A stretch of DNA of 64,000 bases from Candidatus Methanophaga sp. AG-394-G06 (GTDB taxonomy: Archaea > Halobacteriota > Syntropharchaeia > Alkanophagales > Methanospirareceae), in the NCBI GenBank assembly GCA_009903405.1, contig PRCZ01000002.1, forward strand, positions 912 through 64,911, given 5' to 3'. The position numbers and the translations under genes are program-made. This document shows, in pieces, positions 39,643-63,300 of the stretch. The number at the start of each line of letters is the position of its first letter. Within the stretch, counting starts at the first letter, position 1. Under the pieces are notes generated by a model, which worked only from the letters and a program-made list of their open reading frames with translations, had not been told where the DNA came from and did no database searches.

Positions 39643-39960
39643 TTACTTTCTCAGTTCTTCCAGTCTCTTCTTTATCTGCTCTAACTGGTCCCCAAGCATC
39701 TGTGCCTGCGATTCGAGCATAGAAATCTCCTGCTCTTTCGGCACTGCTGCCATGCCCATTGGTGCAACCGGTGCAACTGCTGGTGCTTGCTGCTGTATCC
39801 AAGAAGCAAACTGCGGCATCTGTCCTGTCTGTGTGAGATACTGTGCACCCGGCGGCATTCCCGTTGGGCTTCTTCCTACCCAACCCGGAGAGTATCCAAA
39901 TCGCATCCAGCCGGGTAAACCAGTCAGATAATACATGTTTCTCCTTCCATATCCACCCAT
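39643..39960 (-). CDS. Low-complexity Gly/Tyr/Trp/Pro/Met-rich protein (105 aa) with a C-terminal coiled-coil tail (copy A)
   Basis: The N-terminus reads MGGYGRRNMYYLTGLPGWMRFGYSPGW and the C-terminus reads EQEISMLESQAQMLGDQLEQIKKRLEELRK. Positions 39640-39942 are 100% identical to 53040-53342. Confidence 0.55.
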   Translation of the reverse strand: MGGYGRRNMYYLTGLPGWMRFGYSPGWVGRSPTGMPPGAQYLTQTGQMPQFASWIQQQAPAVAPVAPMGMAAVPKEQEISMLESQAQMLGDQLEQIKKRLEELRK

Positions 39961-39987
39961 TTTTTTCTTATTGCCTCCTAAATTCTT

Positions 39988-40191
39988 TTACGGTCTTGTC
40001 ATTTTAGATCCGCATTTTGGGCAGGTCTGCTGATAGCATGGTACCCCCGTTGGATGCGGCATTGTATAGCCACAATTTGGGCATCGACATTCTCCGCTGG
40101 GGCCCAATCCGCTGCCACCCATTCTCCCTCGCCCTTGACCTCCTCGTCCTACTCCTTGACCCCTTCCGCCTCCTCTACCCATACCACTCAT
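39988..40191 (-). CDS. RGG-box plus zinc-ribbon miniprotein (67 aa, copy A)
   Basis: The N-terminal box MSGMGRGGGRGQGVGRGGQGRGRMGG is followed by CRCPNCG...CPKCGSK. Confidence 0.55.
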   Translation of the reverse strand: MSGMGRGGGRGQGVGRGGQGRGRMGGSGLGPSGECRCPNCGYTMPHPTGVPCYQQTCPKCGSKMTRP

Positions 40192-40192
40192 C

Positions 40193-40417
40193 TTATCTTA
40201 TCCCCCTCCCATAAGAATAGGGATAGCCATAATATGGCATTGGGTATATCCCTGGAGCTGGAGCTATTGCTCCATACATTCCTGTCCACCACCTTCTGGG
40301 AAGCCACGGGAAATTCCTGCAGCATGGATAAGGGTTGCCCATTCCCATACCTCTTCCTGGTCCAAAACCAGACCAAAAACCTCTTCCAAATCCTCTTCCT
40401 CTTGCCATTTTTTTCAC
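40193..40417 (-). CDS. Arg/Gly/aromatic-rich low-complexity protein (74 aa; present only in copy A)
   Basis: The sequence MKKMARGRGFGRGFWSGFGPGRGMGMGNPYPCC...YPMPYYGYPYSYGRG is wedged between the NifX-like gene and the 67-aa gene. Confidence 0.4.
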   Translation of the reverse strand: MKKMARGRGFGRGFWSGFGPGRGMGMGNPYPCCRNFPWLPRRWWTGMYGAIAPAPGIYPMPYYGYPYSYGRGIR

Positions 40418-41028
40418 CCCCTTTTAAGTTCTTCCATTCTCTTCTTCACTTCTTCCAAATCTTTCGCCAGTCTATTTGCCATGTTCGATAGTTCTTCGAT
40501 TTCTTCTTCTTTCGTTCGAGGCGTTATTGGTGCCTGCGGCGCTTGTGGTTGTGGTTGCGAAGGCACCGTTTGCTGCATGCCAAGTCCCATGCCTCTGCCC
40601 ATGCCTTGCCCTCTACCGCCGCCTCGTCCTCCACCCATGCCAAATCCGCCACCTGGAGCAATAGCACCCATACCTGCATGAGCAGAAACTGTCGAACCCT
40701 CCGTCTCGTTAAGTCCACCGGTTTTATACATTTCAACAGCTTCTTGAACCGTGCCATAGGCGCCAGTTGCAATTTTCACACCCGCCGTGGAAAGCACCTG
40801 AAAGGCATTGGGGCCTATATTCCCTGATATAACTACATTCACCCCTTTATTCACAACGGCTTGTGCTGCTTGAATCCCTGCTCCTCCCGGTGCGGTAATG
40901 GCTTCGTTTGCCATCGCTTCGAACGCCATCGTATCTGAATCAACGAACACAAAGTATTGGCACCTTCCAAACCTCGGGTCTACCTGCGCATTCCGGTCTC
41001 CCGCTGTTGCGGTTACGCATATCTTCAT
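40414..41028 (-). CDS. NifX/NafY-family (dinitrogenase FeMo-cofactor-binding fold) domain protein with a Met/Gly/Arg-rich linker and a coiled-coil tail (copy A)
   Basis: The domain is indicated by MKICVTATAG..VDPRFGRCQYFVFVD...AITAPGGAGIQAAQAVVNKGVNVVISGNIGPNAF. The linker reads GMGGGRGGGRGQGMGRGMGLGM and the tail reads KEEEIEELSNMANRLAKDLEEVKKRMEELKRG. Confidence 0.8.
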   Translation of the reverse strand: MKICVTATAGDRNAQVDPRFGRCQYFVFVDSDTMAFEAMANEAITAPGGAGIQAAQAVVNKGVNVVISGNIGPNAFQVLSTAGVKIATGAYGTVQEAVEMYKTGGLNETEGSTVSAHAGMGAIAPGGGFGMGGGRGGGRGQGMGRGMGLGMQQTVPSQPQPQAPQAPITPRTKEEEIEELSNMANRLAKDLEEVKKRMEELKRG

Positions 41029-41067
41029 CTTTCATCTTCTCCCTTTTTGTTTTTTTTCTTCCACATG

Positions 41068-41081
41068 TGAATATATATTCA
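41068..41081. promoter_or_regulatory. Perfect palindrome TGAATATATATTCA upstream of NifX-like operon A (candidate operator and TATA-overlapping site)
   Basis: The identical 14-mer recurs at 54298-54311 and 54738-54751. Confidence 0.5.
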
Positions 41082-41097
41082 TATGAGTATGTAAATG

Positions 41098-41946
41098 TTA
41101 CTTCTTCTCTTCTTTACCTTCCACAAATGCCTGCACATTTTCCACTATCTGCCCAAATGCGTCTTTTACTTTCGATTCCTTTTGCATGACAAATGGCGTT
41201 CCGCTATCCGCAGCTTCTACCATCTGCGGGTCTAACGGCACTCTTCCAAGAAAAGGCACTCCTAACTCCGCCGCTGCCCTTTCTCCGCCTCCATATTTGA
41301 AGATATTTGTCGCTTTCCCACAGTATGGACACACAAACCCACTCATGTTCTCTATTATCCCTATAACCGGCACCTTCAGCACCCCTGAGAAGTTTACTGC
41401 CTTTCTTGAATCTAACAATGCTAAATCCTGCGGTGTTGTAACAATTATCGCGCCATCTACATTCTTTATCAACTGCGCAACACTGAGTGGCTCGTCGCCC
41501 GTCCCCGGCGGAAGGTCAACAATCATATAGTCCAGCTCACCCCAATCAACATCTGAAAGGAATTGCCTTATCGCATTCATCTTCATCGGTCCTCGCCAGA
41601 TGATCGGGGAATCTCTATCTGGTAACAGAAAACCTATGGACATCGCTTTTAGCCGTGGTGTGACTAAAATAGGCGACATTTTCCCCCCTGATGTCTCTGG
41701 CCGCTTGTCCTCTATCCCCAATATCTTTGGAATATCCGGCCCGTGTATATCAGCATCCATCAAACCCACGTCTAAACCGCTCATAGCGAGAGCAAAAGCA
41801 AGATTTGCTGCTACCGTTGTTTTCCCTACACCCCCTTTTCCACTCATCACCATTACCTTATGCTTTACCTTTCTCATGCTTGTATCAACTGCTTCCGCTT
41901 CTTCTTTCATCCCTCTTTTCCTTTCTTCCTCTTCTCCTTCATCCAT
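41098..41946 (-). CDS. apbC: Mrp/ApbC/NBP35-family Fe-S cluster carrier ATPase
   Basis: The P-loop is [10 protein letters not shown], and the C-terminal CPYCG motif is present. Confidence 0.85.
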
Positions 41947-49222: not shown

Positions 49223-49760
49223 TTATTTTTGATCTTTCCCTCCAAAAAGTTTGTTATAAAGCGATGTGTACCTGTGCGCTTTAAGTTTCTCCTTTTCTTC
49301 AGCTATCACAGGAGCAGTATCTGTCTTCTCGTAACCCTTCTGCCCCGATATATACCTCTCTACCACTTCCCAGCCATGCCCTACTGAGCCATGATAACAA
49401 GAAGGCGCCCACAGATGACTCGGGCACCACTCCTTAAGCTGCGGGAATCGATCCCTCAACAGCTTACTACTTCTACCCTTTATCCGCTTCGCTATCCAGC
49501 TTACCGAATACTTCGGTGGACTGCGAAGCATTTCTGTGAAACATTTTTGATAAAACTTTTCTTAAATGTTTTGTAAACGCTTTTTCTAAAAGGGTTTTTA
49601 TGAACAAAGGTACATGATCCACATTCATTGCCATGTCTATAATCGCAATATCAAGCTCTTTGCAGGTTTCCCTGAGAATTTCTCCCGCCACCTCTGCAAC
49701 ATCCCCGAGCTATACCTTCCAGCGATATTTCAGTGAAAAACAGGAATTTCATCCCGGTAA
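49223..49760 (-). mobile_element. tnpA: Degraded IS200/IS605-family tnpA (Y1 HuH transposase) with frameshifts
   Basis: The 102-aa ORF reads SPPKYSVSWIAKRIKGRSSKLLRDRFPQLKE...HLWAPSCYHGSVGHGWEVVERYI, which matches the TnpA C-terminal half. The overlapping 72-aa ORF in another frame has DIAIIDMAMNVDHVPLF, corresponding to the HuH region. Confidence 0.6.
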
Positions 49761-49824: not shown

Positions 49825-50691
49825 CTAATTTATACCATCCCACACCACCTTTATCGCATCCGATACCACCCCTTCTGCGAATTCAACCACCGGCATACCC
49901 GCAACCATCGCTTCAGTGACCACGGAGTCGTATGGTATGTTGCCAACAACTTGTATTCCTCGCTGTCTGCAAAACTCGGTAATCCTCTTGCTGTTCTCTT
50001 CATTAATGTCGTATTTATTGATGCAGACGGCGGAAGCAATACCGAAATGTCTGGTCACATCCATGATTCGTTCGAGGTCATGCAGTCCGGACATCGTGGG
50101 CTCGGTAACGATGAGCGCAAGGTCCACACCGGCCAATGACGCAATTACAGGGCAGCCGATGCCCGGCGATCCGTCAATCAGAATGAGTTCACAGCCCTCT
50201 TTTTCTGCAACCTGCTGTGCATTGTTTCTAACAACAGTGACCAGTTTTCCTGATGCCTCTTCCGCGATATTGAGCTGCGCATGCACCATTGTGCCATAGT
50301 TAGTCTTTGATATAAATGCATAGCCCGAGACACGTTCTTTCAGCGTAACCGCTTCCTGTGGACACGTAAACACACAAGCGCCACAGCCCTCACAACGTGC
50401 GGGATTGACTGCATAGCCTGATTCTTCGGTCGAAGCAATAGCGTTGAATCGACATGTTTCTTCGCACGTTCCACACTCGGAGCATAGCGTTTTATCTATA
50501 ACGGCAACTTTCACGCCTTTAAACTCCTCCTTCTTTATGATTTCCGGATGTAGCAGCAGATGGAGGTCTGGTGCGTCTACATCGCAGTCTACAATGACTT
50601 TGTTCTCTACAAGGGCCGCGAACGAGCCCACAAGGGTTGTCTTCCCCGTGCCACCTTTTCCACTAATAACCGTTATTTGTTTCATTTGCAT
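49825..50691 (-). CDS. MinD/ParA-family P-loop ATPase with an inserted 2x[4Fe-4S] ferredoxin domain (COG1149, CooC-like)
   Basis: The P-loop is ISGKGGTGKTT. Two CxxCxxCxxxCP clusters are present. Confidence 0.8.
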   Translation of the reverse strand: MQMKQITVISGKGGTGKTTLVGSFAALVENKVIVDCDVDAPDLHLLLHPEIIKKEEFKGVKVAVIDKTLCSECGTCEETCRFNAIASTEESGYAVNPARCEGCGACVFTCPQEAVTLKERVSGYAFISKTNYGTMVHAQLNIAEEASGKLVTVVRNNAQQVAEKEGCELILIDGSPGIGCPVIASLAGVDLALIVTEPTMSGLHDLERIMDVTRHFGIASAVCINKYDINEENSKRITEFCRQRGIQVVGNIPYDSVVTEAMVAGMPVVEFAEGVVSDAIKVVWDGIN

Positions 50692-50772: not shown

Positions 50773-50850
50773 TTTTTCTTTTAGCACAGGCTAAATTTTC
50801 TTTTTTAAAAAAGAAAAAGTGTTGTGTAAATCTTGTGTAATCTCGTGGTT
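50773..50850. repeat. Intergenic repeat of about 70 bp, copy 2 (see 4565-4632)
   Basis: It is nearly identical to copy 1. It has an extra GTGTAATCT duplication at the 3' end and lies between the two MinD-ferredoxin genes. Confidence 0.7.
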
Positions 50851-51703
50851 ATAATAGAACTTTATCAATTATCCCTGCAAATCGCTCCTTCCACTCCGGC
50901 ATCGCCTTCACAAAGGGCACGCCCTCAGAATAGTAACGTGCAATCCGCGTGTCATGTGGAATCTCAAGCAAAATCGGAATCCCTTCCTTCTCGCAGTACT
51001 CATACACCTTTCGATCCCCAATCCCTGCTTTATTTATAACCATGCCAAAAGGAATCTTAAGCACTCTGAGCACCTCAACTGCAAGCCTCAAATCGTAGAG
51101 CCCAAACGGGGTGGGCTCAGTCACAAGAATGCAGTAATCGCTTCCTTGCACGGCTGCAATCACCGGGCATGCCGTTCCCGGTGATACATCAATAATCACT
51201 GTCTTTTCCGGATCAAGGTCCGCTTTTACCTGGTCGATCAGCGGTGTTGCCATTATCTCCCCGATATTCAACACCCCGTACACGAGGTCAACGTTGCCGT
51301 CACCGCTTTTTCCTGTTTTTATAACGCCGATCTCCCTCGGTTCCTCGCTGATCGCATCCTGCGGGCATACTAAGGAACATAACCCACAGCCGTGGCAAAG
51401 TTCCGGAAACAGCATTACTTCTTTTTGTGGCACCGCAACAAGAGCGTTGTATTCACACGCCGCAGCACACTTACCGCAGTAATCACACAAATCGTAATTG
51501 ACCCTTGGCACCAGCGTATACGCCGGCTTTATCTCCTCGATCACCGGATTAAGGAAGATATGTGAATTTGGCTCTTCTACATCGCAATCCATTAATTGTA
51601 CGTTCGAAAGCGACAGAGCCAGATTAACAGCTACGGTTGTCTTTCCCGTACCGCCTTTGCCGCTTGCTACCGCAATAATCATCGGTTCACCGTTTTGTTG
51701 CAT
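50849..51703 (-). CDS. MinD/ParA-family ATPase with an inserted ferredoxin domain, second paralogue
   Basis: The P-loop is ASGKGGTGKTT and Cys clusters include CDYCGKCAAAC and CHGCGLCSLVCP. The start was set at the internal Met to avoid the overlap. Confidence 0.8.
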   Translation of the reverse strand: MQQNGEPMIIAVASGKGGTGKTTVAVNLALSLSNVQLMDCDVEEPNSHIFLNPVIEEIKPAYTLVPRVNYDLCDYCGKCAAACEYNALVAVPQKEVMLFPELCHGCGLCSLVCPQDAISEEPREIGVIKTGKSGDGNVDLVYGVLNIGEIMATPLIDQVKADLDPEKTVIIDVSPGTACPVIAAVQGSDYCILVTEPTPFGLYDLRLAVEVLRVLKIPFGMVINKAGIGDRKVYEYCEKEGIPILLEIPHDTRIARYYSEGVPFVKAMPEWKERFAGIIDKVLL

Positions 51704-51714
51704 TGTGCGTCCCA

Positions 51715-52074
51715 TTAATGCCGGTGCATTTTGCACGCATTGGCATCACTAGCTTCGTTGAGTCTCCCTGCCTGAAAAGCGCTTATTGCTTCGCTTACCG
51801 TACCACTGGCGCCTACATACACCTCTATCCCCAACTGTTCAAACGCGCTTATTGCACGAGGGCCTAATCCGGAACAGAGCATTATCTCTGCACCCGCACC
51901 TGCTACGAGATCCGGTGTATTGCCTACACCGCCAAAATGTTCACCCGTGTTCTGCACAATTTCCACCTTGTTACTCACCATATCCACAACAGTAAATGTT
52001 GGTGCTCTTCCAAAATGCTCACTTACAAGATCTTCCAATCCTCCATTTCCCAATGAGGGAATGCATAGTTTCAT
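51715..52074 (-). CDS. NifX/NafY-family domain protein (stand-alone, 119 aa)
   Basis: The sequence reads MKLCIPS.........HFGRAPTFTVVD...GVGNTPDLVAGAGAEIMLCSGLGPRAISAF. Confidence 0.75.
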   Translation of the reverse strand: MKLCIPSLGNGGLEDLVSEHFGRAPTFTVVDMVSNKVEIVQNTGEHFGGVGNTPDLVAGAGAEIMLCSGLGPRAISAFEQLGIEVYVGASGTVSEAISAFQAGRLNEASDANACKMHRH

Positions 52075-52078
52075 ATGT

Positions 52079-52570
52079 TCATCTCCTCTCTTTTTTATTC
52101 CTCTTTTTATTCCTATTCTTATTCTTACTCTTATAATCTTCCAGAGCTGCTCTTAGCGTGTCCATTGCAAGCACAGAGCAATGAATGTTTTCTTCCGGTA
52201 AACCACCCAAAACGGATAAAACGTCCTTGCCCTCTACCGTGAGTGCTTCTTCGATTGTCTTACCTTTCACCAGTTCTGTAACCACGCTTCCACATGCCAT
52301 TGAAGCACCACAACCATCGGTTATGAATTTGCAATCTACGATTTTATTCTCTTCAACTTTAATATGCATCTGCAGTGTGTCTCCGCAGGGGCCGGTTACT
52401 CTGGCAGCACCACTGGGGGCTTCCAGTTCACCAACGTTTTTTGGGTTGTATGCCGCCTCAAGTGTCTTCTCAGTGTATATTCCCCTTTCCTCTTCTAATA
52501 TTTCCTCTTCCATCTTCTTGGTTAGTTCATCGAAATCGGAAGTTTCATTTTTTTCGGTTATTTTTTCCAT
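52079..52570 (-). CDS. IscU/NifU-N-like Fe-S scaffold protein with an acidic N-terminus and a polybasic C-terminal tail
   Basis: The conserved ligands are GPCGD, DGCGAS and HCS. The tail reads KSKNKNRNKKRNKKERR. Confidence 0.7.
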   Translation of the reverse strand: MEKITEKNETSDFDELTKKMEEEILEEERGIYTEKTLEAAYNPKNVGELEAPSGAARVTGPCGDTLQMHIKVEENKIVDCKFITDGCGASMACGSVVTELVKGKTIEEALTVEGKDVLSVLGGLPEENIHCSVLAMDTLRAALEDYKSKNKNRNKKRNKKERR

Positions 52571-52619: not shown

Positions 52620-52931
52620 TTATAGCTCTTCGATACTTCTTTCCATCTCTTCAACTTTGGACCTTACGACGTTTAATTGCGTTTTTAGCCTCTCTAGTAC
52701 TGGATCTCTCTGCAAAATTGGAGATGAATGTGGGGCTATTTGGATGGCACCCTTTGGACAAGCCCGTACACAAGCAGTGCAGCAGATACACCTGTTAAAA
52801 TCCACTACTGCTTTTTTATCAACAATTCCAATCGCACCGGTACAGCAAACCGCGGTGCACTTTCCACACCCTACGCATAGTTCTTCGTTAACAAAAGCTT
52901 TCCAAGCTAATGATTGTATAGATTGCTGCAT
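52620..52931 (-). CDS. 2x[4Fe-4S] ferredoxin with a C-terminal coiled-coil tail
   Basis: The clusters are [11 protein letters not shown] and [12 protein letters not shown]. The tail reads [25 protein letters not shown]. Confidence 0.75.
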
Positions 52932-52965
52932 AGCACACTAAAAAAGAAAAAGGAGCAAGAAAGAG

Positions 52966-53004
52966 CTATCTTCTCGCTTTTCCACACAGTTCGCATTTAC
53001 CCAT
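52966..53004 (-). pseudogene. Truncated copy of the 55-aa zinc-ribbon gene (12 codons, MGKCELCGKARR-stop) at the edge of duplication B
   Basis: It is homologous to the start of the 39436-39603 gene. Confidence 0.4.
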
Positions 53005-53043
53005 TCCCTTCTCCTCATGTTTCTAATTGGCCCTTTCCACTCT

Positions 53044-53361
53044 TTACTTTCTCAGTTCTTCCAGTCTCTTCTTTATCTGCTCTAACTGGTCCCCAAGCAT
53101 CTGTGCCTGCGATTCGAGCATAGAAATCTCCTGCTCTTTCGGCACTGCTGCCATGCCCATTGGTGCAACCGGTGCAACTGCTGGTGCTTGCTGCTGTATC
53201 CAAGAAGCAAACTGCGGCATCTGTCCTGTCTGTGTGAGATACTGTGCACCCGGCGGCATTCCCGTTGGGCTTCTTCCTACCCAACCCGGAGAGTATCCAA
53301 ATCGCATCCAGCCGGGTAAACCAGTCAGATAATACATGTTTCTGTGTCTATTTCCTCCCAT
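53044..53361 (-). CDS. Low-complexity Gly/Tyr/Trp/Pro/Met-rich protein (105 aa) with a coiled-coil tail (copy B)
   Basis: It differs from copy A only at residues 4-7. Positions 53040-53342 are 100% identical to 39640-39942. Confidence 0.55.
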   Translation of the reverse strand: MGGNRHRNMYYLTGLPGWMRFGYSPGWVGRSPTGMPPGAQYLTQTGQMPQFASWIQQQAPAVAPVAPMGMAAVPKEQEISMLESQAQMLGDQLEQIKKRLEELRK

Positions 53362-53388
53362 TTTTTTCTTATCGCCTCCTAATTTTTT

Positions 53389-53592
53389 TTATGGTCTCGC
53401 CATTTTAGACCCGCATTTTGGGCAGCTCTGCTGATAGCATGGCACCCCCGTTTGATGCGACATTGTATAGCCACAATTCGGGCATCGACAATCTCCGGCA
53501 GGACCCAATCCGCTGCCACCCATTCTCCCTTGCCCTTGACCTCCTCGTCCTATTCCTTGACCTCTTCCTCCTCCTCTACCCATGCCACTCAT
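53389..53592 (-). CDS. RGG-box plus zinc-ribbon miniprotein (67 aa, copy B)
   Basis: The sequence reads MSGMGRGGGRGQGIGRGGQGQGRMGG...CRCPNCG...CPKCGSK. It is identical to copy A at 62 of 67 residues. Confidence 0.55.
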   Translation of the reverse strand: MSGMGRGGGRGQGIGRGGQGQGRMGGSGLGPAGDCRCPNCGYTMSHQTGVPCYQQSCPKCGSKMARP

Positions 53593-53603
53593 CTTATTTT
53601 ACG

Positions 53604-54248
53604 TCACCTCTTTTTAAGTTCTTCTAGCCTCTTCTTCACTTCTTCCAAATCTTTCACCAGTCTATTAGCCATGTTCGATAGGTCTTCGATTTCTTCTTCT
53701 TTCGTTCGAGGCTTTATTGGTGCCTGCGGCGCTTGTGGTTGCGAAGGCAGTGGTTGCTGCATGCCAAGTCCCATACCTCTGCCCATACCTCTGCCCATGC
53801 CTTGCCCTCTACCGCCGCCTCGTCCTCCGCCCATGCCCATACCCATGCTCGTGCCCATGCCAAATCCGCCACCCGGTGCAGTAGCGCCCATACCAGCATG
53901 AGCAGCTACTGTTGAAGTACCTGTCTCACCTAACTTACCGCCTTTATACATCTCAACAGCTTCTTGTACCGTGCCATAAGCGCCTGTTCCAATTTTCACA
54001 CCAGCGGTGGACAACACTTGAAAAGCATTGGGACCTATATTCCCCGAAATGACTACATTCACACCTTTATTCACCATTGTTTGTGCCGCCTGAATTCCCG
54101 CTCCACCCGGTGCGGCAATCGCTTCGTTCGCCATCGCTTCAAATGCCATTGTCTCCGAATCTACGATTACAAAGTATTGGCACCTTCCAAACCTCGGGTC
54201 TACCTGTGCATTCAGGTCTCCTGCCGTTGCGGTTACGCATATCTTCAT
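53604..54248 (-). CDS. NifX/NafY-family domain protein with a Met/Gly/Arg-rich linker and a coiled-coil tail (copy B)
   Basis: The domain is the same as in copy A. The linker is longer (GMGTSMGMGMGGGRGGGRGQGMGRGMGRGMGLGM) and the tail reads KEEEIEDLSNMANRLVKDLEEVKKRLEELKKR. Confidence 0.8.
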   Translation of the reverse strand: MKICVTATAGDLNAQVDPRFGRCQYFVIVDSETMAFEAMANEAIAAPGGAGIQAAQTMVNKGVNVVISGNIGPNAFQVLSTAGVKIGTGAYGTVQEAVEMYKGGKLGETGTSTVAAHAGMGATAPGGGFGMGTSMGMGMGGGRGGGRGQGMGRGMGRGMGLGMQQPLPSQPQAPQAPIKPRTKEEEIEDLSNMANRLVKDLEEVKKRLEELKKR

Positions 54249-54332: not shown

Positions 54333-54734
54333 CTATGATGAAACCAAAGGATCTCCACCACGCCCATGTCTCCCTCTTTTCCAGTCAGGAGACAGTTTCG
54401 AAAGGGGCACATGCGTTTCATTGTTAGCACTCAATATTACATAATTACCGCCTTCTATTCTTATTGCTTTCCCTTCAACAAAAGCTTCTGCTATCTTCCG
54501 ATGTGCTTCGCTTACTATTCGATGGAATGTAGGTTGCGAAACGCCCATTTTTTTCGCTGCTTCTTCCTGACTTAGCCGCTGATAGTCTTTAAGCCTTATG
54601 CTCTCCAGTTCTTCCACTTTCAATATCAATCTTTCATAGACCTCAGGATTAGGCGTTCTTTCACCTCGTCGTGGCTCGAAGAGGAGGAAATTTGGCTTGA
54701 CGCTTACGCACCTGCACAGTCTTCGCCCTGGCAT
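54333..54734 (-). CDS. DUF134 (UPF0251) predicted DNA-binding protein
   Basis: The N-terminus is MPGRRLCRCVSVKP. The sigma-70 region-4-like HTH reads LSQEEAAKKMGVSQPTFHRIV, followed by GKAIRIEGG. The start was set at MPGRR rather than the upstream ATG that lies inside the palindrome. Confidence 0.75.
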   Translation of the reverse strand: MPGRRLCRCVSVKPNFLLFEPRRGERTPNPEVYERLILKVEELESIRLKDYQRLSQEEAAKKMGVSQPTFHRIVSEAHRKIAEAFVEGKAIRIEGGNYVILSANNETHVPLSKLSPDWKRGRHGRGGDPLVSS

Positions 54735-54737
54735 ATA

Positions 54738-54751
54738 TGAATATATATTCA
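54738..54751. promoter_or_regulatory. Third copy of the palindrome TGAATATATATTCA, 3 nt upstream of the DUF134 start codon
   Basis: The site is seen directly in the sequence. Autoregulation is inference. Confidence 0.5.
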
Positions 54752-54852
54752 CAATACACGTTAAAGTTTCACACTTTAATTTTTTCGAGATGTTGCAATC
54801 TTGAGAATACTAGCAGTACAACATGAAAAAGTCGGATCTTCAGCAGAGTGTC

Positions 54853-57094: not shown

Positions 57095-58360
57095 ATGGTA
57101 GAGAAAGAGCATATGAATCTGGCAATGATTGGGCATATTGACCACGGCAAGTCAACGCTGTTGGGTCGGTTGCTAACAGAGGCAGGAGCGATAGATCCTC
57201 ATATAATAGAAGAGTACAGGAAAAAGGCAGCAGAGATAGGAAAAGCGACTTTTGAATATGCCTGGGTGATGGATACTTTGGCGGATGAAAGGGAGAGGGG
57301 AATAACAATAGATGTTGCCCACCAAAGGTTTGATACTAACAAGTATTATTATACGATTGTGGATTGCCCTGGACACAGGGATTTCGTAAAGAACATGATC
57401 ACCGGGACATCACAGGCTGATGCAGCGGTGTTGGTAGTAGATGCTAAGGACGGTATAATGGCTCAGACGAAGGAGCACGTATTCTTATCCAGAACTTTGG
57501 GTGTGACTCAGTTGATCATAGCTATAAATAAAATGGACCGTGTTAATTACGATCAGAAGCGCTATGAGGAGTTAAAAAAGGAGCTGCTAGCACTTCTGGG
57601 GTTGGTGGGCTACAAGGAGGAGCACGTCGTCTTTATTCCCGTTTCCGCACTTGATGGTGTGAATATAACAAAGAAAAGTGATAAAGAGTCCTGGTTCGAC
57701 GGGCCTACGCTTTTAGAAGCGTTAGACCTTATGAAAGTGCCGGATAAGCCAGTTAATCTTCCGCTTAGAATACCCGTGCAAGATGTATATACAATAACCG
57801 GTGTAGGGACCGTGCCTGTAGGGCGAGTGGAGACAGGGAAGATGAAGAAAGGAGACACCGTGATTTTCAACCCTCCTGCTGTGAAAGGAGAGGTGAAAAC
57901 AATAGAGATGCACCATGAGGAGATCGAAGAAGCTATCCCCGGTGATAACATCGGCTGGAATGTTCGTGGAATAAGCAGGACAGAGATAAGGCGAGGTGAT
58001 GTTTGTGGGCCTGTGGATAACCCGCCAACGATTGTTGATGAGTTCACGGCACAGATAGTTGTACTCCAGCATCCAAGTGCAATTACCGCTGGATATACCC
58101 CGGTTTTCCATACCCACACTGCGCAGGTCGCTGCTACGATACTGGAAATTACTAAGAAGATGGACCCTAAGACAGGAGCGACAGTGGAAGAAAACCCGGA
58201 CTTTATAAAAGCGGGCGATGCCGCTATCATAAAAGTAAAACCGACAAGACCTTTAGTCATCGAGCGTGTAAAGGAGATACCACAGCTCGGCCGGTTTGCA
58301 GTCCGGGACATGGGGCAAACAGTTGCTGCTGGTATGGTAATAGACCTAAAGGAGAAATAA
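57095..58360 (+). CDS. tuf: Translation elongation factor EF-1 alpha
   Basis: The sequences [17 protein letters not shown] and NKMD are present. The protein is 421 aa. Confidence 0.95.
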
Positions 58361-58388
58361 AGCAAGGCTAGCAGGAAGAGGGAACGAA

Positions 58389-58700
58389 ATGCATCAAAAA
58401 GCACGGATAAAACTATCGAGTATAGACCATATGAAATTGGATGAGATATGCCATCAAGTAAAAAAGATCGTTGAGACCACTGGTGTTAGAATGTCAGGCC
58501 CCATTCCTCTTCCCACAAAGAAGCTGATGGTTCCGTGTAGAAAAAGCCCGGATGGTGAAGGGTCCCCTACATGGGATCATTGGGAAATGCGCATACATAA
58601 GCGGCTGATAGACCTAGAAGCCGATGAGAGAGCTCTGCGGCAACTTATGCGCATACCCATACCCAAAGATGTCCATATAGAGATCGTATTGAAAGGCTAA
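58389..58700 (+). CDS. rps10: 30S ribosomal protein S10
   Basis: The protein is 103 aa and lies immediately downstream of tuf, as in the archaeal str-like cluster. Confidence 0.9.
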
Positions 58701-58771
58701 AAATAGAAAGATATAAATGCTGGCAGTATCATATCTTGCATTTATAACATAAATGGAGGTAGTAATGTAAA

Positions 58772-58996
58772 ATGGGCGTAGTACCAGAAGAGGAAATAAA
58801 GGAGAAGGATGAAGAAATAGCTGCATTGGTAAAGGATATAGGCGATTTAGTAACTGAATTTAAAAGTGCAGCGGAAGAGGATCAGAGGACAGACCTGATA
58901 AATAAAATAACGGAAAAGGAGAAGGACTTGCGTGCCGTAAGACAGAAAAAAGGACAATTTAAAGCAGTGCTAGCTAAACCCACAAAACTCTGGTAA
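58772..58996 (+). CDS. Hypothetical small acidic protein
   Basis: This is a 74-aa ORF with no recognised motif. Confidence 0.35.
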   Translation: MGVVPEEEIKEKDEEIAALVKDIGDLVTEFKSAAEEDQRTDLINKITEKEKDLRAVRQKKGQFKAVLAKPTKLW

Positions 58997-59064
58997 ATTC
59001 ATTCTTAACTCTCTTAAACAAAACAAAAAGAAGAAAAAAAATATTTTTTCTTTTCTATTTTATA

Positions 59065-59955
59065 TTATTTTAGTAATTTCTCTGGCATTGTTGTTGTTTG
59101 CGCGTCCAATCCCACTTCTTTTTCACTGAGTCCCATTGCGAGCCCGAGGAACTGCGTGGCGAATAGTATGGGGAAATCAAAGGATGTGCCGAAAGCCTTG
59201 TTCATCTCCGCTTGACCTCTGTCAAGCTGCAAATGGCAGAAAGCACAGGGATGAACCATACAATCACAGCCTACTTCCATCGCACTCACCAGCTTCTGAC
59301 GCATCCATTCCAGAGATTGAACAGAGTCAGCAGTTCGGTTTCCGCCACCAGCGCCACAGCACATCAATTTATCCTTATAATCTACGTCTTTTGCACCGGT
59401 TACCTTTACAAGATCCTCCAGGATATAGGGTGTTTCCGAAGACCCGTGTCCACGCACCTCTCGTGGTTTGAGGAAATGGCAGCCGTAATGCACCGCTACA
59501 TTCACATCGTTCATCGGTTTCGTTATACGCTCCTTTAGCTTCTCCAAACCAATAAAGTCGTGAAGAACCACAATTGAATGGTTCACCTTTGTAGTGCCTT
59601 TGTATTCCCTGCCAAATTTACCTAATATCTTATTGGTCTTCTCTTTTAACTTTGGATTCTCCCGCAGTAAATGGTCTGCTTCCTGAAGTGACCCGTAACA
59701 GCCATTACACGTTACATATATTTCGAGATCCATCTCTTCCGCAATAGCGAGATTACGCGCTGCGACAGGAAGCCACGTATGCATGTCAAAAGAGCCAAAG
59801 ACTCCCGGCGCTGGACAGCACGAAGCACCCACCATCTCCTTCGTCTCTATCCCAAACTCCGTAAATATCTTCTTCGTTGCTGCTTCTATCCCCGGATACC
59901 TGTTCGGCGTGATACAACCGAGGAAATAAGCATATTCCGTTGGATGTTCCGTCAT
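59065..59955 (-). CDS. hdrB: CoB-CoM heterodisulfide reductase subunit B-like (two CCG domains)
   Basis: The motifs ASCCPAPG and MCCGAGGG, plus further Cys clusters, are present. The protein is 296 aa. Confidence 0.8.
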   Translation of the reverse strand: MTEHPTEYAYFLGCITPNRYPGIEAATKKIFTEFGIETKEMVGASCCPAPGVFGSFDMHTWLPVAARNLAIAEEMDLEIYVTCNGCYGSLQEADHLLRENPKLKEKTNKILGKFGREYKGTTKVNHSIVVLHDFIGLEKLKERITKPMNDVNVAVHYGCHFLKPREVRGHGSSETPYILEDLVKVTGAKDVDYKDKLMCCGAGGGNRTADSVQSLEWMRQKLVSAMEVGCDCMVHPCAFCHLQLDRGQAEMNKAFGTSFDFPILFATQFLGLAMGLSEKEVGLDAQTTTMPEKLLK

Positions 59956-60515
59956 TTCTTACCCCCTTTATCCATCCCTTTTAAGTTCATCGTGTCCCAA
60001 TCAAAATCAATCATCGCGTCATAGCCCGTCGTCTTGAATATTGTCTGCACCTGCTCCAGTTGGTCTTTGTTTTGAGGATGTTGCGCAGTCGGCGGCTGCG
60101 ACTCGAGACCTACCGCTTCCCTCAGTTCCATCTGAGCAGGACCGATCGGCACTGCATGACCTGTTTTCATCACATAAACGCCAATCATCCTGTGTGGAAC
60201 AGACATGTGCCCTTCCTTCGCCGCCAAGTTCCTTATCGTTCTTATTATATCTGTCACTTTTACACCCTTTGGACATCTTTCATAACAGGTGTAACAAGTT
60301 GAGCAGAACCACAATTCGGGGGCGTTAAAAATCTCCTCACGCATATCCACCAGAGCCATCTGCATTAGCTTTCTCGTCCTGAAGGCCGTGTTCCTCCCAG
60401 AGGGACAGCCGCCAGTACACTTACCGCATTGCACGCACTCCCTGAGCGTTTCTAAATGCTCCTTGCCAAAAACCTCTCCACCATAATCAATTATGTCTTC
60501 ATATAACGTTCCCAT
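59952..60515 (-). CDS. hdrC: Heterodisulfide reductase subunit C-like (2x[4Fe-4S])
   Basis: The clusters are CVQCGKCTGGCP and CSTCYTCYERCP. The gene overlaps the hdrB start by 4 nt. Confidence 0.8.
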   Translation of the reverse strand: MGTLYEDIIDYGGEVFGKEHLETLRECVQCGKCTGGCPSGRNTAFRTRKLMQMALVDMREEIFNAPELWFCSTCYTCYERCPKGVKVTDIIRTIRNLAAKEGHMSVPHRMIGVYVMKTGHAVPIGPAQMELREAVGLESQPPTAQHPQNKDQLEQVQTIFKTTGYDAMIDFDWDTMNLKGMDKGGKK

Positions 60516-60608
60516 TTGAGTATTCCTCCTTACATATTATTTACTAATCTTCCTTTTTATATGGGTTTGAGTTATCATTATAAATAATTTGCGCTTTTTT
60601 CATGATTT

Positions 60609-60931
60609 TTACACTTGCACTATCTTCGCCTCATCCTTCTCTAAATCGAGTATGGCAAACGTACTCCTTCTCGTGAGGCGCCCGCAGCATTCTCCGGGAT
60701 TTATCATCAACGCTTTATCCTCTTTCTTCTCTATCTCCGCTTTATGTGTATGCCCATATATCACCACATCATAAGCGCCCGATACCGCCAACGCCCCCAC
60801 TATCTTTGGTTTATGCGTCATAATTAGCTTCTTCGCGGCGAGTGCAAATACAGAAGGGTCTTTCATATAGCACCCCTACCGCTTTTTCTATTGCTTCGAG
60901 ATTATCATGCGTATCTGCGATTATTCCCAGT
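60609..60931 (-). pseudogene. YfcE/MJ0936-family metallophosphoesterase remnant (frameshift plus an internal deletion of about 70 aa)
   Basis: The N-terminus MKLGIIADTHDNLEAIEKAVGVL is in one frame. The C-terminus YDVVIYGHTHKAEI...LMINPGECCG...AILDLEKDEAKIVQV is in another frame. Only about 30 aa lie between them. Confidence 0.55.
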
Positions 60932-61015
60932 TTCATTCATTCCTCTCCCATCTCTACCATAAATAAGTAATTAAAATTATATTTGTGTAGTAATCTGATT
61001 TTAAAAAATAAGCAG

Positions 61016-62236
61016 ATGGCATACTCATCCATAAAACGAAGCTACACCATCGTTGGCATAGATCCCGGTACCACGATAGGAGTTGCCATGCTCGACCTTG
61101 ACGGGAGACCAATAGACGTATTCAGCTCAAAGAATTATTCGGTCTCCGACGTAGTAGCACGGATAATATCGCTTGGAAAGCCTTTGATAGTCGCTTCTGA
61201 TGTCACACCCACCCCTTCAATGGTAAAAAGGATAAGCAGCATCTTCTCCTCTCTTGTCCCAGAACTAGACGAATCCCTCTCACTGGAGGAGAAGATTGCA
61301 CTGACGAAGGGAGCGGGCTACGGATATAAAAACGCACATGAAAGGGATGCTTTAGCTGCTTCTGTCACTGCATTCAAGCGCTATAGGAAGAAATTCTCGC
61401 AGGTACAGAAGAAGACGCCGGCAGGTGTGGACGTGGAAGAGGTGAAGGCGCAGGTGGTTAAAGGTGTCTCTATAAGTGCAGCAATAGACAAATTAATTAG
61501 TCTGAAATGGGAGAATAAAGAAGTTATAAGAGTGGAGCGGCCAGAAGAGAAAAAGAGCAATGACGAAAGCGAAAATATTCTCAGATTACGCGGAATTATA
61601 AAGGGTAAAGACAAAAAGATAGCGATGCTGGAAGAGCTCACGACCGCTTTAAAGACTGTGGACGCTGAAAAAGAGCTCAAAATAAGTCGTTTGAACCACA
61701 AACTCGATTCTATACGGTCTGAAGGGAGAAGGGAGATGGCAGTAATAGAAGAGATACGGCGGAGAGACAATAAGATAGTGCGGCTGAGAGAGGAATTAAA
61801 AGAACAGGACGAGCTGAATGCTGATTTAAGGACGATCATAGAAGAACGGAAAGGAAAAAGAGGGGTAAAGGGCGGGAAAAGGATAAAGCTGATAAAAGCT
61901 TTCTCTCATGATGCAATATTAGATGCACATCGGCGGTATGGGCTAAAAAAAGGAGACGTCATATTCCTCGAGGACAGTAGTGGGGGCGGGGCAAGCACAG
62001 CGGAACTGTTAGCGAAGAAGGGTATTAGTGCTGTAATATATGGTAAAGAGTTATCGCATTTCGCCACTAATACGTTTCTTGTGTTTCGCATTCCCACTTT
62101 TTCTATTGATGAGATACCTTTACTGCTAAAGGAAGAAAATGGCGATTTCGCCTTTGTGGACCAGCATTTGCTGAACGAGAAGATGAAGGAGTGGAAGGCA
62201 GGAAAGAAGAGAAAAGAGGTGATACTGTTCAGATAG
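61016..62236 (+). CDS. DUF460 family protein (RNase H-like N-terminal domain plus coiled coil)
   Basis: The N-terminus is YTIVGIDPGTTIGVAMLDLDG. The start was set at the internal Met (MAYSS). Confidence 0.6.
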   Translation: MAYSSIKRSYTIVGIDPGTTIGVAMLDLDGRPIDVFSSKNYSVSDVVARIISLGKPLIVASDVTPTPSMVKRISSIFSSLVPELDESLSLEEKIALTKGAGYGYKNAHERDALAASVTAFKRYRKKFSQVQKKTPAGVDVEEVKAQVVKGVSISAAIDKLISLKWENKEVIRVERPEEKKSNDESENILRLRGIIKGKDKKIAMLEELTTALKTVDAEKELKISRLNHKLDSIRSEGRREMAVIEEIRRRDNKIVRLREELKEQDELNADLRTIIEERKGKRGVKGGKRIKLIKAFSHDAILDAHRRYGLKKGDVIFLEDSSGGGASTAELLAKKGISAVIYGKELSHFATNTFLVFRIPTFSIDEIPLLLKEENGDFAFVDQHLLNEKMKEWKAGKKRKEVILFR

Positions 62237-62334
62237 ACCCCTAATGTTTTTTGGTCTTTTACACGATTTTTGACAAAACCAGATCATTATAATAAATAGA
62301 GGTGCATGGTATGTAATAGGTGTGGTGGAAAAGA

Positions 62335-63300
62335 ATGATGATAAGCGTGAATGAATATGGATTGGATGTATTTGAAGAGATGATGGACAACGCGGATGAG
62401 CTGCGGGTGGGCATAGACGAGTTGGCTAACGGGACAACGATAATAGATGCCGGGGTGGAAGAAGAAGGGGGACTAGAAGCAGGGTTATACTTATCTCGGA
62501 TATGCATGGCAGACCTTGCAGATCTCAAATTCAGCAGCTTTGATCTCGGTGAAATGGTCGTGCCTGCGATAGAGATTACTACGGACCATCCGGTAATCGC
62601 CTGTATGGCATCGCAATTTGCGGGATGGCGGATAAGTGTGAATAAATTCTTCGGTATGGGTTCTGGACCCGCAAGAGCACTTTCACTCAATCCGAAAGAG
62701 TTATATAAGAAGATAGGGTATGAAGACGATGCAAGTGAGGCCGTGTTGGTTTTAGAATGTGGCAGTATGCCAGATGAAGAAGTGACGGAAGAAATAGCGA
62801 AGGCATGCAGGGTAGAACCAGAAGACCTTTATATCGTGGTGGCACCGACAGCATCCATTGCGGGCTCTGTACAGATTTCTGCCAGAGGCGTGGAAACAGG
62901 CGTTCACAAGCTCGAGTCTTTAGGTTTTGATATAAACCGCATAGAACACGCTCATGGTATCATACCAATCTCACCTATTGTTGGTGATGATGTGAAGTGC
63001 ATGGGTTCGACCAATGATTGTATCATATACGGTAGTCACATTTATTACGTGATAAAATACGATGATGTGGAAGATTTGAAGGGATACCTGAAGAAAGTGC
63101 CTTCGCAGATCTCAAAGGACTATGGGAAACCGTTCTACACAACATTTAAAAATGCGGGTTTCGACTTCTACAAGGTAGATGCAGCCATGTTTGCACCTGC
63201 GCAGATCACGGTAAATGAACTGAACAGCGGAAAGACATTTACAAGTGGGAAGATAAATAAAGAGGTGTTGCGGGAGTCTTTTGGTATTGAGTCACTATAA
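62335..63300 (+). CDS. mch: Methenyltetrahydromethanopterin cyclohydrolase
   Basis: The N-terminus is MISVNE and the protein is about 320 aa with overall Mch-like sequence character. Confidence 0.75.

Follow-up and report, generated by a model that had tools for sequence, protein, structure and literature searches.

A C-terminal DUF5320 helix on NifX-like and free-standing proteins in an ORP-like operon of an ANME-1 archaeon

Two described systems come closest to the genes considered here. In Desulfovibrio, the orange protein (ORP) system comprises Orp3, Orp4 and Orp8, which co-purify and are fed with clusters by MrpORP, a protein found at the cell poles (PMC6345978); the role of the system is still called unclear (PMC6345978, PMC8359166), and an archaeal origin has been suggested for it in the literature. 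In Pyrococcus furiosus, IssA (PF2025) joins an IPR003731 domain to a 70-residue disordered cationic Gly/Arg/aromatic tail, for which thioferrate binding has been proposed, and forms large particles (PMC5524996). The present work concerns an operon-like row of genes in a 64,000-nucleotide (nt) stretch of DNA from an ANME-1 (Methanophagales) archaeon, in which proteins of different types end in a similar amphipathic helix. The whole stretch is called the window below; all coordinates refer to it and all genes listed lie on its minus strand. The names of homologues assign it to ANME-1/Methanophagales, and one exact protein match is to ANME-1 cluster archaeon AG-394-G21. ANME-1 archaea and methanogens have a large demand for iron-sulfur (Fe-S) clusters, and their storage and traffic of iron and sulfide are poorly understood.

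Identity and design of the C-terminal helix

Four neighbouring genes at 52620–54248 encode a NifX-like protein of 214 amino acids (aa), a 67-aa protein, a 105-aa protein and a ferredoxin of 103 aa, and form part of a longer operon-like row with short gaps. A second, paralogous gene set is located at 39643–41946, encoding an Mrp/NBP35 ATPase, a 204-aa NifX-like protein and proteins of 74, 67 and 105 aa. The genes and segments bearing a terminal helix are listed below, where the tail HMM is a hidden Markov model built from the 105-aa/DUF5320 family, so that the 69-bit score of the 105-aa protein is not an independent one.

53604–54248, minus strand: NifX/orange-protein-like domain plus full DUF5320, 214 aa (PF02579 88 bits; PF17253 32.5 bits, residues 126–211)
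53913–54248, minus strand: NifX domain of the 214-aa protein, residues 1–112
53703–53912, minus strand: cationic Gly/Met/Arg-rich and Pro/Gln-rich linker of the 214-aa protein, residues 113–182
53607–53702, minus strand: tail helix of the 214-aa NifX~DUF5320 protein, residues 183–214, KEEEIEDLSNMANRLVKDLEEVKKRLEELKKR (50.6 bits against the tail HMM)
53044–53361, minus strand: free-standing DUF5320 protein, 105 aa (PF17253 26.9 bits, gathering score 27; 69.2 bits against the tail HMM)
53047–53142, minus strand: tail helix of the 105-aa protein, residues 74–105
52620–52931, minus strand: 2x[4Fe-4S] ferredoxin, 103 aa (Fer4 Pfam families)
52623–52706, minus strand: C-terminal four-heptad amphipathic helix of the ferredoxin, residues about 76–103
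40414–41028, minus strand: paralogous NifX~DUF5320 protein, 204 aa, with its tail helix at 40417–40512 (PF02579; PF17253 33.9 bits)
39643–39960, minus strand: paralogous DUF5320 protein, 105 aa, with its tail helix at 39646–39741 (69.2 bits against the tail HMM)

The tail of the NifX-like and 105-aa proteins is the C-terminal helix of the Pfam family DUF5320 (PF17253), which is known but uncharacterized. Both NifX-like proteins exceed the PF17253 gathering score of 27 bits, with 32.5 and 33.9 bits over profile positions 17–99 and 20–99 of 99, respectively; the 105-aa protein, with 26.9 bits, stays just short of that score, and many of its homologues at 80–95% identity had already been annotated with PF17253 or named 'DUF5320 domain-containing protein' by NCBI. 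Because the match spans nearly the whole profile instead of the helix alone, the NifX-like protein is a NifX domain fused to a whole DUF5320, and the PF17253 plus PF02579 architecture is recorded in all of the 120 NifX-long homologues listed. The earlier note on this DNA had proposed a tag common to unrelated proteins; for these two types the tag is not newly seen, as both the family and its combination with NifX were on record. In the 214-aa protein, the DUF5320 part opens with a Gly/Met/Arg-rich acid-free stretch, which is disordered and cationic, and continues through a Pro/Gln linker into the helix. The linker region of 70 residues contains 23 Gly, 9 Met, 5 Arg and not a single acidic residue (isoelectric point, pI, 12). 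The 105-aa protein starts with a conserved MYYLTGLPGWMRFGYSPGW motif, followed by a Pro/Ala/Gln linker and the tail helix.

Judged from alignment, the NifX-like and 105-aa tails are truly homologous, beyond a common heptad pattern. Local BLOSUM62 alignment of the two gave scores of 79–80 versus 25–26 ± 4.8–4.9 for composition shuffles (z about 11, with none of 2000 shuffles as high), and profile-profile comparison of the two families with hhalign gave a score of 39.1 (P 2.4e-10), as opposed to 9.5 ± 2.3 for random column shuffles and 16.1 ± 3.5 for heptad-preserving ones (0/100 as high in either). The near-invariant features derived from 142 cluster representatives, namely E5, L9, R26, E29 and L30 together with the a/d heptad core at the extreme C-terminus, are all carried by the NifX-long and 105-aa tails; in the 214-aa protein, the a/d core reads ILALLVLL and the g stripe E-M-D-R.

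The ferredoxin tail, an amphipathic heptad helix kept in all ANME-1 orthologues of about 96–126 aa, has the same length and register as the DUF5320 tail, shares its eight a/d core positions and ends likewise in …EEL. Pairwise comparison with the other tails gave z values of 3.0–4.4, and hhalign placed the ferredoxin tail in register with the DUF5320 tail at a probability of 75–87% and a score of 24.5, which was reached by 0/150 random column shuffles but by 12/150 heptad-preserving ones. No DUF5320 match was found for the window ferredoxin at E ≤ 0.1 or for 30 of its orthologues at E ≤ 10, and the tail scored about 5–7 bits against the tail HMMs (5.4 bits, E 0.69 in one). It has Ser at R26, Val at E5 (Asp in the family consensus) and no KKR patch, while E29/L30 and the core are kept. 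Assignment of the ferredoxin tail to DUF5320 was rejected, neither Pfam nor the purpose-built tail HMM giving a significant match; the tail appears to resemble DUF5320 as one coiled coil resembles another, homology being no more than a possibility. It is a lineage-specific coiled-coil helix that may dimerize the ferredoxin or dock it to the same assembly.

The claim that one tail is present on three protein types thus stands for the NifX-like and 105-aa proteins and gives way to a generic coiled-coil resemblance for the ferredoxin. All four tails quoted in the earlier note are in the sequence, the second NifX tail (…KRMEELKRG) belonging to the paralogue at 40414–41028, outside 52620–54248. Its motif EE..L...L..LE.+KKRLEEL+K fits two of the three types, since the ferredoxin lacks the KKR patch and has Ser at the near-invariant Arg. 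Compositional bias, which it had named as what might explain the likeness, is far exceeded by the NifX/105-aa pair in the shuffles, whereas the ferredoxin score is matched by some of those preserving the heptads.

As a helix of roughly 30 residues and four heptads, the tail keeps a strict, uninterrupted 3-4 spacing of its eight a/d core positions in all three tail types. In the low-confidence AlphaFold2 model of the 105-aa protein (mean predicted local distance difference test score, pLDDT, 58), the helix at 75–104 is the only moderately confident segment, which together with the spacing bears out the coiled-coil character that the earlier note had asked to see checked; for a two-helix homologue, helices were modelled at 76–106 and 137–175 (mean pLDDT 59, only the helices being usable), and Foldseek with this model returned no match. 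The most conserved non-core positions are E5 (4.2 bits) and R26 (4.1 bits), both at g and on par with the core leucines. The family g stripe reads E-Q-Q-R and the e stripe E-(E/Q/G)-K-K, running from an acidic N-terminal end to a basic C-terminal end. Antiparallel pairing in coiled coils sets g against g' and e against e', so such an acid-to-base stripe is self-complementary only in the antiparallel arrangement. The count of e/g charges gave +4.3 for antiparallel versus −2.1 for parallel pairing, with 93% of sequences favouring the former; within the window, the antiparallel scores were +4 for the 105-aa protein with itself, +3 for 105-aa with NifX and +2 for NifX with NifX, and the ferredoxin tail reached +2 in parallel with a second copy of itself and 0 to −2 when paired with DUF5320 helices. 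Outside the core, Glu, Gln, Lys and Arg predominate, and the net charge of the helix is negative. Natural variants with two such helices in tandem occur, which would fit an intramolecular version of antiparallel pairing. From these patterns we infer that the helix is probably a coiled-coil association element with an antiparallel preference.

A search of 1.84 billion cluster representatives with a profile of the tail alone retrieved 500 at E ≤ 1e-3. Among the 150 matches listed, most end a few residues from the C-terminus, and the carriers are small proteins with very different N-termini, yet always of low complexity and rich in W/Y/G/P/R; some carry two tandem helices, some are NifX fusions and none is a ferredoxin. 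The helix thus forms a separate, conserved module at the very C-terminus that is reused on different N-terminal parts, including the NifX domain, a YYLTGLPGW-motif protein, small W/Y/G/P-rich proteins and an FPWLPRRWW-motif protein. The second helix of the tandem variants was considered as a distinct 'type A' class that might match the ferredoxin tail better, and this was rejected; one 29-residue template matches both helix types, which are therefore diverged copies of one module. Four of the tail-profile matches (P0318, P0406, P0422 and P0431) have a Cys-containing insert between the N-terminal motif and the tail helix, such as HKDCISFVPPNKCSLKGIEVEPTGSACEDF, which may be a small metal-binding module. 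Comparison of the DUF5320 profile with solved structures yielded no relative, only generic coiled coils (prefoldin, ZapA) at E ≥ 0.02, and the searchable literature holds two incidental mentions of DUF5320, the family having no assigned function or structure.

The operon beside the ORP cluster and IssA

The row of genes continues on both sides of the four-gene block, with a DUF134 gene upstream and, downstream, a NifU/IscU scaffold, a tail-less NifX and two MinD-type ATPases with ferredoxin inserts. These and the remaining genes of the paralogous set are as follows.

54333–54752, minus strand: DUF134 putative DNA-binding protein, first gene of the cluster (PF02001 91.6 bits)
53389–53592, minus strand: 67-aa protein combining a Gly/Arg-rich cationic stretch at the N-terminus with a zinc-ribbon-like module, CxCxxC…CxxxxCxxC, at the C-terminus (weak zinc-ribbon Pfam matches)
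52079–52570, minus strand: NifU/IscU-type Fe-S scaffold, 163 aa (PF01592 127 bits; NCBIfam NifU_clost 130 bits)
51715–52074, minus strand: tail-less NifX-like protein, 119 aa (PF02579 78 bits)
50849–51736, minus strand: MinD/ParA-type P-loop ATPase into which a 2x[4Fe-4S] ferredoxin domain is inserted, Orp3/Orp4-like (CbiA, ParA and Fer4 Pfam families)
49825–50691, minus strand: second MinD/ParA-type ATPase with a ferredoxin insert, Orp3/Orp4-like (CbiA and Fer4 Pfam families)
41098–41946, minus strand: Mrp/NBP35 ATPase of the paralogous set, corresponding to the P-loop half of MrpORP (NCBIfam MrpORP NF041136 376 bits, profile positions 1–256 of 365)
40193–40417, minus strand: 74-aa Gly/aromatic/Arg/Pro-rich protein with the motif FPWLPRRWWTG (homologues in 42/80 loci)
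39988–40191, minus strand: paralogous 67-aa Gly/Arg-rich zinc-ribbon protein (59/67 residues identical to the copy at 53389–53592)

By its gene content, the operon is the archaeal counterpart of the Desulfovibrio ORP cluster. As in D. vulgaris and D. alaskensis, two MinD-type 2x[4Fe-4S] ATPases (Orp3/Orp4), a NifX-like orange protein (Orp8) and an Mrp/NBP35 protein (Orp9) are encoded in clusters, and the best solved relative of the NifX domain is 2WFB, 'ORP' (1.5e-20), followed by 1RDU and MTH1175 (2e-18). The Mrp gene covers positions 1–256 of the 365 of MrpORP and the next gene, NifX at 40414–41028, covers positions 265–363, so that the two represent a split form of the fused Desulfovibrio Orp9 (MrpORP); the 376 bits of Mrp fall below the 450-bit MrpORP cut-off, as NifX, the other half, is encoded by a gene of its own. 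The Cys-rich 67-aa protein may be the counterpart of Orp5 and the DUF134 gene that of Orp7. No sigma-54/OrpR regulator was noticed, no search having been aimed at OrpR. Different from the ORP clusters, MrpORP is split here, NifX bears DUF5320 and the gene set is duplicated, with a free DUF5320 protein, the 74-aa aromatic/Gly/Arg protein, a tailed ferredoxin and a NifU scaffold in addition. The ORP literature that was searched, which did not include the original description of the complex, mentions neither DUF5320 nor a coiled-coil component.

The NifU/IscU scaffold has an acidic N-terminal extension of 31 residues and, at the C-terminus, a tail rich in Lys, Arg and Asn, KSKNKNRNKKRNKKERR. Charged extensions of this kind are not usual on IscU; they might contact the acidic ferredoxin tail or anionic clusters.

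The likeness to IssA lies in an IPR003731/PF02579 domain followed by a disordered cationic Gly/Arg-rich tail, with a pI of 10.1 for the tail here and 10.7 in IssA. IssA proteins have been delimited operationally by IPR003731/PF02579, a pI of at least 9, a Gly content of 20% or more over the last 40 residues and fewer than 5 Cys (Vaccaro et al. 2017); the 214-aa protein has the domain (PF02579, 88 bits) and 2 Cys, and matches MTH1175, the IssA-type structural template, at 2e-18. The IssA tail is covalently attached and lacks a predicted terminal helix, whereas the Gly-rich stretch here is Met-rich, poor in aromatic residues and followed by a coiled-coil helix, the aromatic part being a separate gene. 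With 16 Gly, 16 aromatic, 11 cationic (Arg/Lys), 10 Pro and 2 Cys residues, no Asp/Glu and a pI of 10.5, the free 74-aa protein matches, in a comparison by composition alone, almost item by item the published IssA tail, which contains 15 Gly, 14 aromatic, 7 cationic, 11 Pro and 1 Cys in 70 residues (PMC5524996). The 74-aa open reading frame (ORF) starts with GTG, overlaps the stop codon upstream by 4 nt and has no tail helix in this genome, and its product gave no Pfam or NCBIfam match. The 67-aa protein (pI 9.6) is also without a tail helix.

In total, 80 loci with the 105-aa family were retrieved from ANME-1, Methanocellaceae, Bathyarchaeia, 'Thermococci' metagenome-assembled genomes (MAGs), Syntrophoarchaeum and GoM-Arc1. 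The shared gene order is DUF134, Mrp, NifX with or without the tail, 74-aa, 67-aa, DUF5320, in some cases the ferredoxin and NifU, NifX and the two MinD/ferredoxin ATPases; the 67-aa protein is present in 59/80 loci, DUF134 beside the cluster in 51/80 and the 74-aa protein in 42/80, and NifX and DUF5320 genes are adjacent in 53/80. Across these loci the tail HMM matched 145 ORFs. Of these, 81 belong to the DUF5320 type, 53 to the NifX type and 2 to the 74-aa type, and the other 9 are small aromatic-rich proteins or truncated C-termini of the NifX type.

The pieces are joined in different ways from lineage to lineage. NifX proteins with a Gly/Arg stretch only are found at L047, L061, L063 and L064, while at L077 NifX is joined straight to the helix without any Gly/Arg stretch, and the 74-aa protein type bears the DUF5320 helix in Bathyarchaeia (L064, L066). 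At L060 (2716–3324, plus strand), in a Methanobacteriota MAG, NifX, a Gly/Arg stretch and a CxCxxC…CxxC zinc ribbon of the 67-aa type were observed in one 203-aa chain, and by virtue of this fusion the 67-aa protein is counted as another module of the same system. The tail, whose absence from orthologues was to speak against the earlier note, is present in the ANME-1 ferredoxins and in the NifX-long homologues listed, and is missing from the NifX proteins of the four loci with a Gly/Arg stretch only.

In other lineages, the ferredoxins encoded at this place in the operon are short and have no tail. Proteins of 71–75 aa in which one CxxCxxCxxxCP motif precedes a C-terminal amphipathic helix were observed at L051 (6275–6499), L061 (2540–2755) and L078 (2107–2319); these unrelated half-ferredoxins sit between NifX and the zinc-ribbon gene, and at the same three loci the NifX protein bears no DUF5320-type helix that the tail HMM could detect. 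That mini-ferredoxins with a helical tail keep appearing in this operon hints at docking of a ferredoxin on the assembly.

A proposed assembly and its alternatives

On balance, the features described make it somewhat probable that the helix cross-links cationic disordered segments and NifX carriers into an assembly for Fe-S handling or storage, encoded by an operon of the ORP type. DUF5320 helices would pair antiparallel through complementary e/g charges, and following from the palindromic e/g pattern, tail-bearing proteins could pair with themselves or with each other. Pairing would tether NifX cluster-carrier domains to acid-free cationic disordered segments within one multi-protein assembly, which would bind anionic iron-sulfide species or Fe-S cluster intermediates, making the system a 'split' IssA with its cationic tail supplied by separate or fused pieces. 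Co-assembly is the most economical reading because the C-terminal helix is modular, its carriers are encoded side by side in the operon and it has coiled-coil features. The docking or co-assembly peptide suggested in the earlier note finds support on the same grounds, except that the ferredoxin was included there on generic coiled-coil similarity; the note's observation as a whole is partly confirmed and its interpretation partly supported.

An extended form of this proposal, which we consider unlikely, would have a coiled-coil cross-linked scaffold, a nanoparticle or condensate-like body, storing or channelling an anionic iron-sulfide polymer or Fe-S intermediates in ANME-1 and many other anaerobic archaea, with the dedicated ferredoxin docking through its similar helix and reducing or receiving the material. 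The carrier domain, Gly/Arg stretch, aromatic stretch and Cys ribbon of such a scaffold would be supplied as separate or variously fused polypeptides, with the antiparallel helix common to them keeping the parts in one body.

Several points weigh against the proposed assembly. The physical interaction between tail-bearing proteins is one that we infer from sequence, the e/g charge rule is crude, and the AlphaFold2 models are of monomers only. The free DUF5320 protein keeps its helix at L047, L061, L063 and L064, where NifX has none, so hetero-pairing with NifX cannot be its sole role. The charges of the ferredoxin tail are predicted not to complement those of DUF5320 helices, and thioferrate binding is presumed here purely by analogy with IssA. 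Moreover, the pI values of the 214-aa and 204-aa copies, 8.90 and 5.93, lie below the IssA limit of 9, and the last 40 residues of the NifX-long protein, made up of the Pro/Gln linker and the helix, contain no Gly. As the helix occupies the C-terminal end, the ANME-1 NifX-long proteins are not IssA members by these filters; the Gly-rich stretch, with 23 Gly in 70 residues, sits just upstream of the last 40 residues.

The chief competitor, which we regard as doubtful though still to be taken seriously, holds that there is no common docking, each tail self-associating into homodimers or homo-oligomers and the ferredoxin tail being an independent, convergent coiled coil. The data on the ferredoxin suit this explanation, as its tail is not significantly above heptad-preserving shuffles (12/150), has no Pfam match, lacks R26 and the KKR patch and attains its best e/g score with itself in parallel (+2, versus 0 to −2 with DUF5320), and so do the tail-less ferredoxins at the same operon position elsewhere and the free DUF5320 helices retained beside helix-less NifX proteins. 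It is opposed by the palindromic acid-to-base e/g pattern common to the NifX and DUF5320 tails, whose cross-pairing (+3) scores between the two self-pairings (+4 and +2), and by the adjacency of NifX and DUF5320 genes in 53/80 loci. Small helix-tailed ferredoxin-like proteins, furthermore, are found in the operon in at least four lineages, and of the 13 highest HMM scores below the threshold, out of 6604 ORFs, 4 belong to such proteins.

It is improbable that the Gly/Arg stretches are RGG-type nucleic-acid binders oligomerized by the helix and serving DNA or RNA together with DUF134 instead of metal clusters. The stretches are indeed cationic, acid-free Gly/Arg repeats, DUF134 is similar to helix-turn-helix proteins and sigma-70 region 4, and a survey of archaeal G-quadruplex-binding motifs flagged one DUF134 and one DUF5320 protein (PMC7565180). 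However, all other conserved genes of the operon encode Fe-S proteins or cluster carriers (NifX, Mrp, MinD/ferredoxin, NifU), the stretch is fused directly to the cluster-binding NifX domain and to the Cys-rich ribbon, and IssA, the only characterized relative with such a tail, binds an inorganic polyanion.

Lipid-binding helices need a broad hydrophobic face, and a narrow a/d face is the signature of a coiled coil. The hydrophobic face of the DUF5320 helix is limited to two a/d positions per heptad and the helix is net negative, which argues against a membrane- or pole-targeting amphipathic helix, comparable to the C-terminal helix of MinD, that would place the Fe-S machinery at the membrane. 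This possibility, raised by the MinD-family ATPases in the operon and by the polar position of MrpORP in Desulfovibrio (PMC6345978), was rejected on the narrow hydrophobic face and appears very improbable.

Least probable of all is a cargo-loading peptide for a protein shell, whether an encapsulin or a bacterial microcompartment, the analogy that the earlier note had drawn. Microcompartment cargo is recruited by terminal amphipathic helices behind flexible linkers, and the tails here sit behind Pro/Gln-rich linkers; as with encapsulin and microcompartment cargo peptides, a short terminal amphipathic helix follows a flexible linker on functionally different proteins. The analogy does not hold further, as no shell family was found in the 30 proteins of the window that were scanned (10 cluster proteins and 20 flanking ORFs) or among the labelled genes of the 80 related loci. 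The present helix is longer (four heptads), carries self-complementary charges and has no shell partner in the scanned genes, and its commonest carrier is a small, mostly disordered protein without an obvious cargo function.

If cross-linking by the DUF5320 helix is true, an uncharacterized Pfam family would gain a function, and the Desulfovibrio ORP complex and Pyrococcus IssA would be two forms of one modular system. The finding is in the main the re-discovery of a domain of unknown function that was already known, in an architecture already on record, which limits the surprise; the searchable literature contains neither the link between DUF5320, the ORP cluster and an IssA-like cationic tail, nor the modular shuffling of these pieces, nor the antiparallel-pairing signature of the helix.

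Gene copies and flanking genes

The 204-aa and 214-aa NifX~DUF5320 proteins are identical at 180 of 216 aligned residues, and the two 105-aa copies at 102/105 residues and 312/318 nucleotides. Nucleotide identity between the two gene sets is uneven, rising from 82% for NifX through 91% for the 67-aa gene to 98% for the 105-aa gene, which suggests gene conversion or that the 105-aa gene is very strongly constrained.

A collection of 15 billion proteins contains the ferredoxin and the NifX-like proteins of this genome but lacks exact matches to the proteins of 105, 67 and 74 aa; the three genes may have been missed, or given other starts, in the deposited annotation.

Between the MinD/ferredoxin gene and the genes upstream, short overlapping ORFs at 49223–49691 resemble, by eye, transposase fragments, …HLWAPSCYHGSVGHGWEVVERYI…. 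The flanks at 57095–63300 encode EF-1alpha, ribosomal protein S10, HdrB-like CCG and HdrC-like ferredoxin-domain proteins and methenyl-H4MPT cyclohydrolase (Mch), core archaeal and methane-metabolism genes that are consistent with a chromosomal ANME-1 origin.

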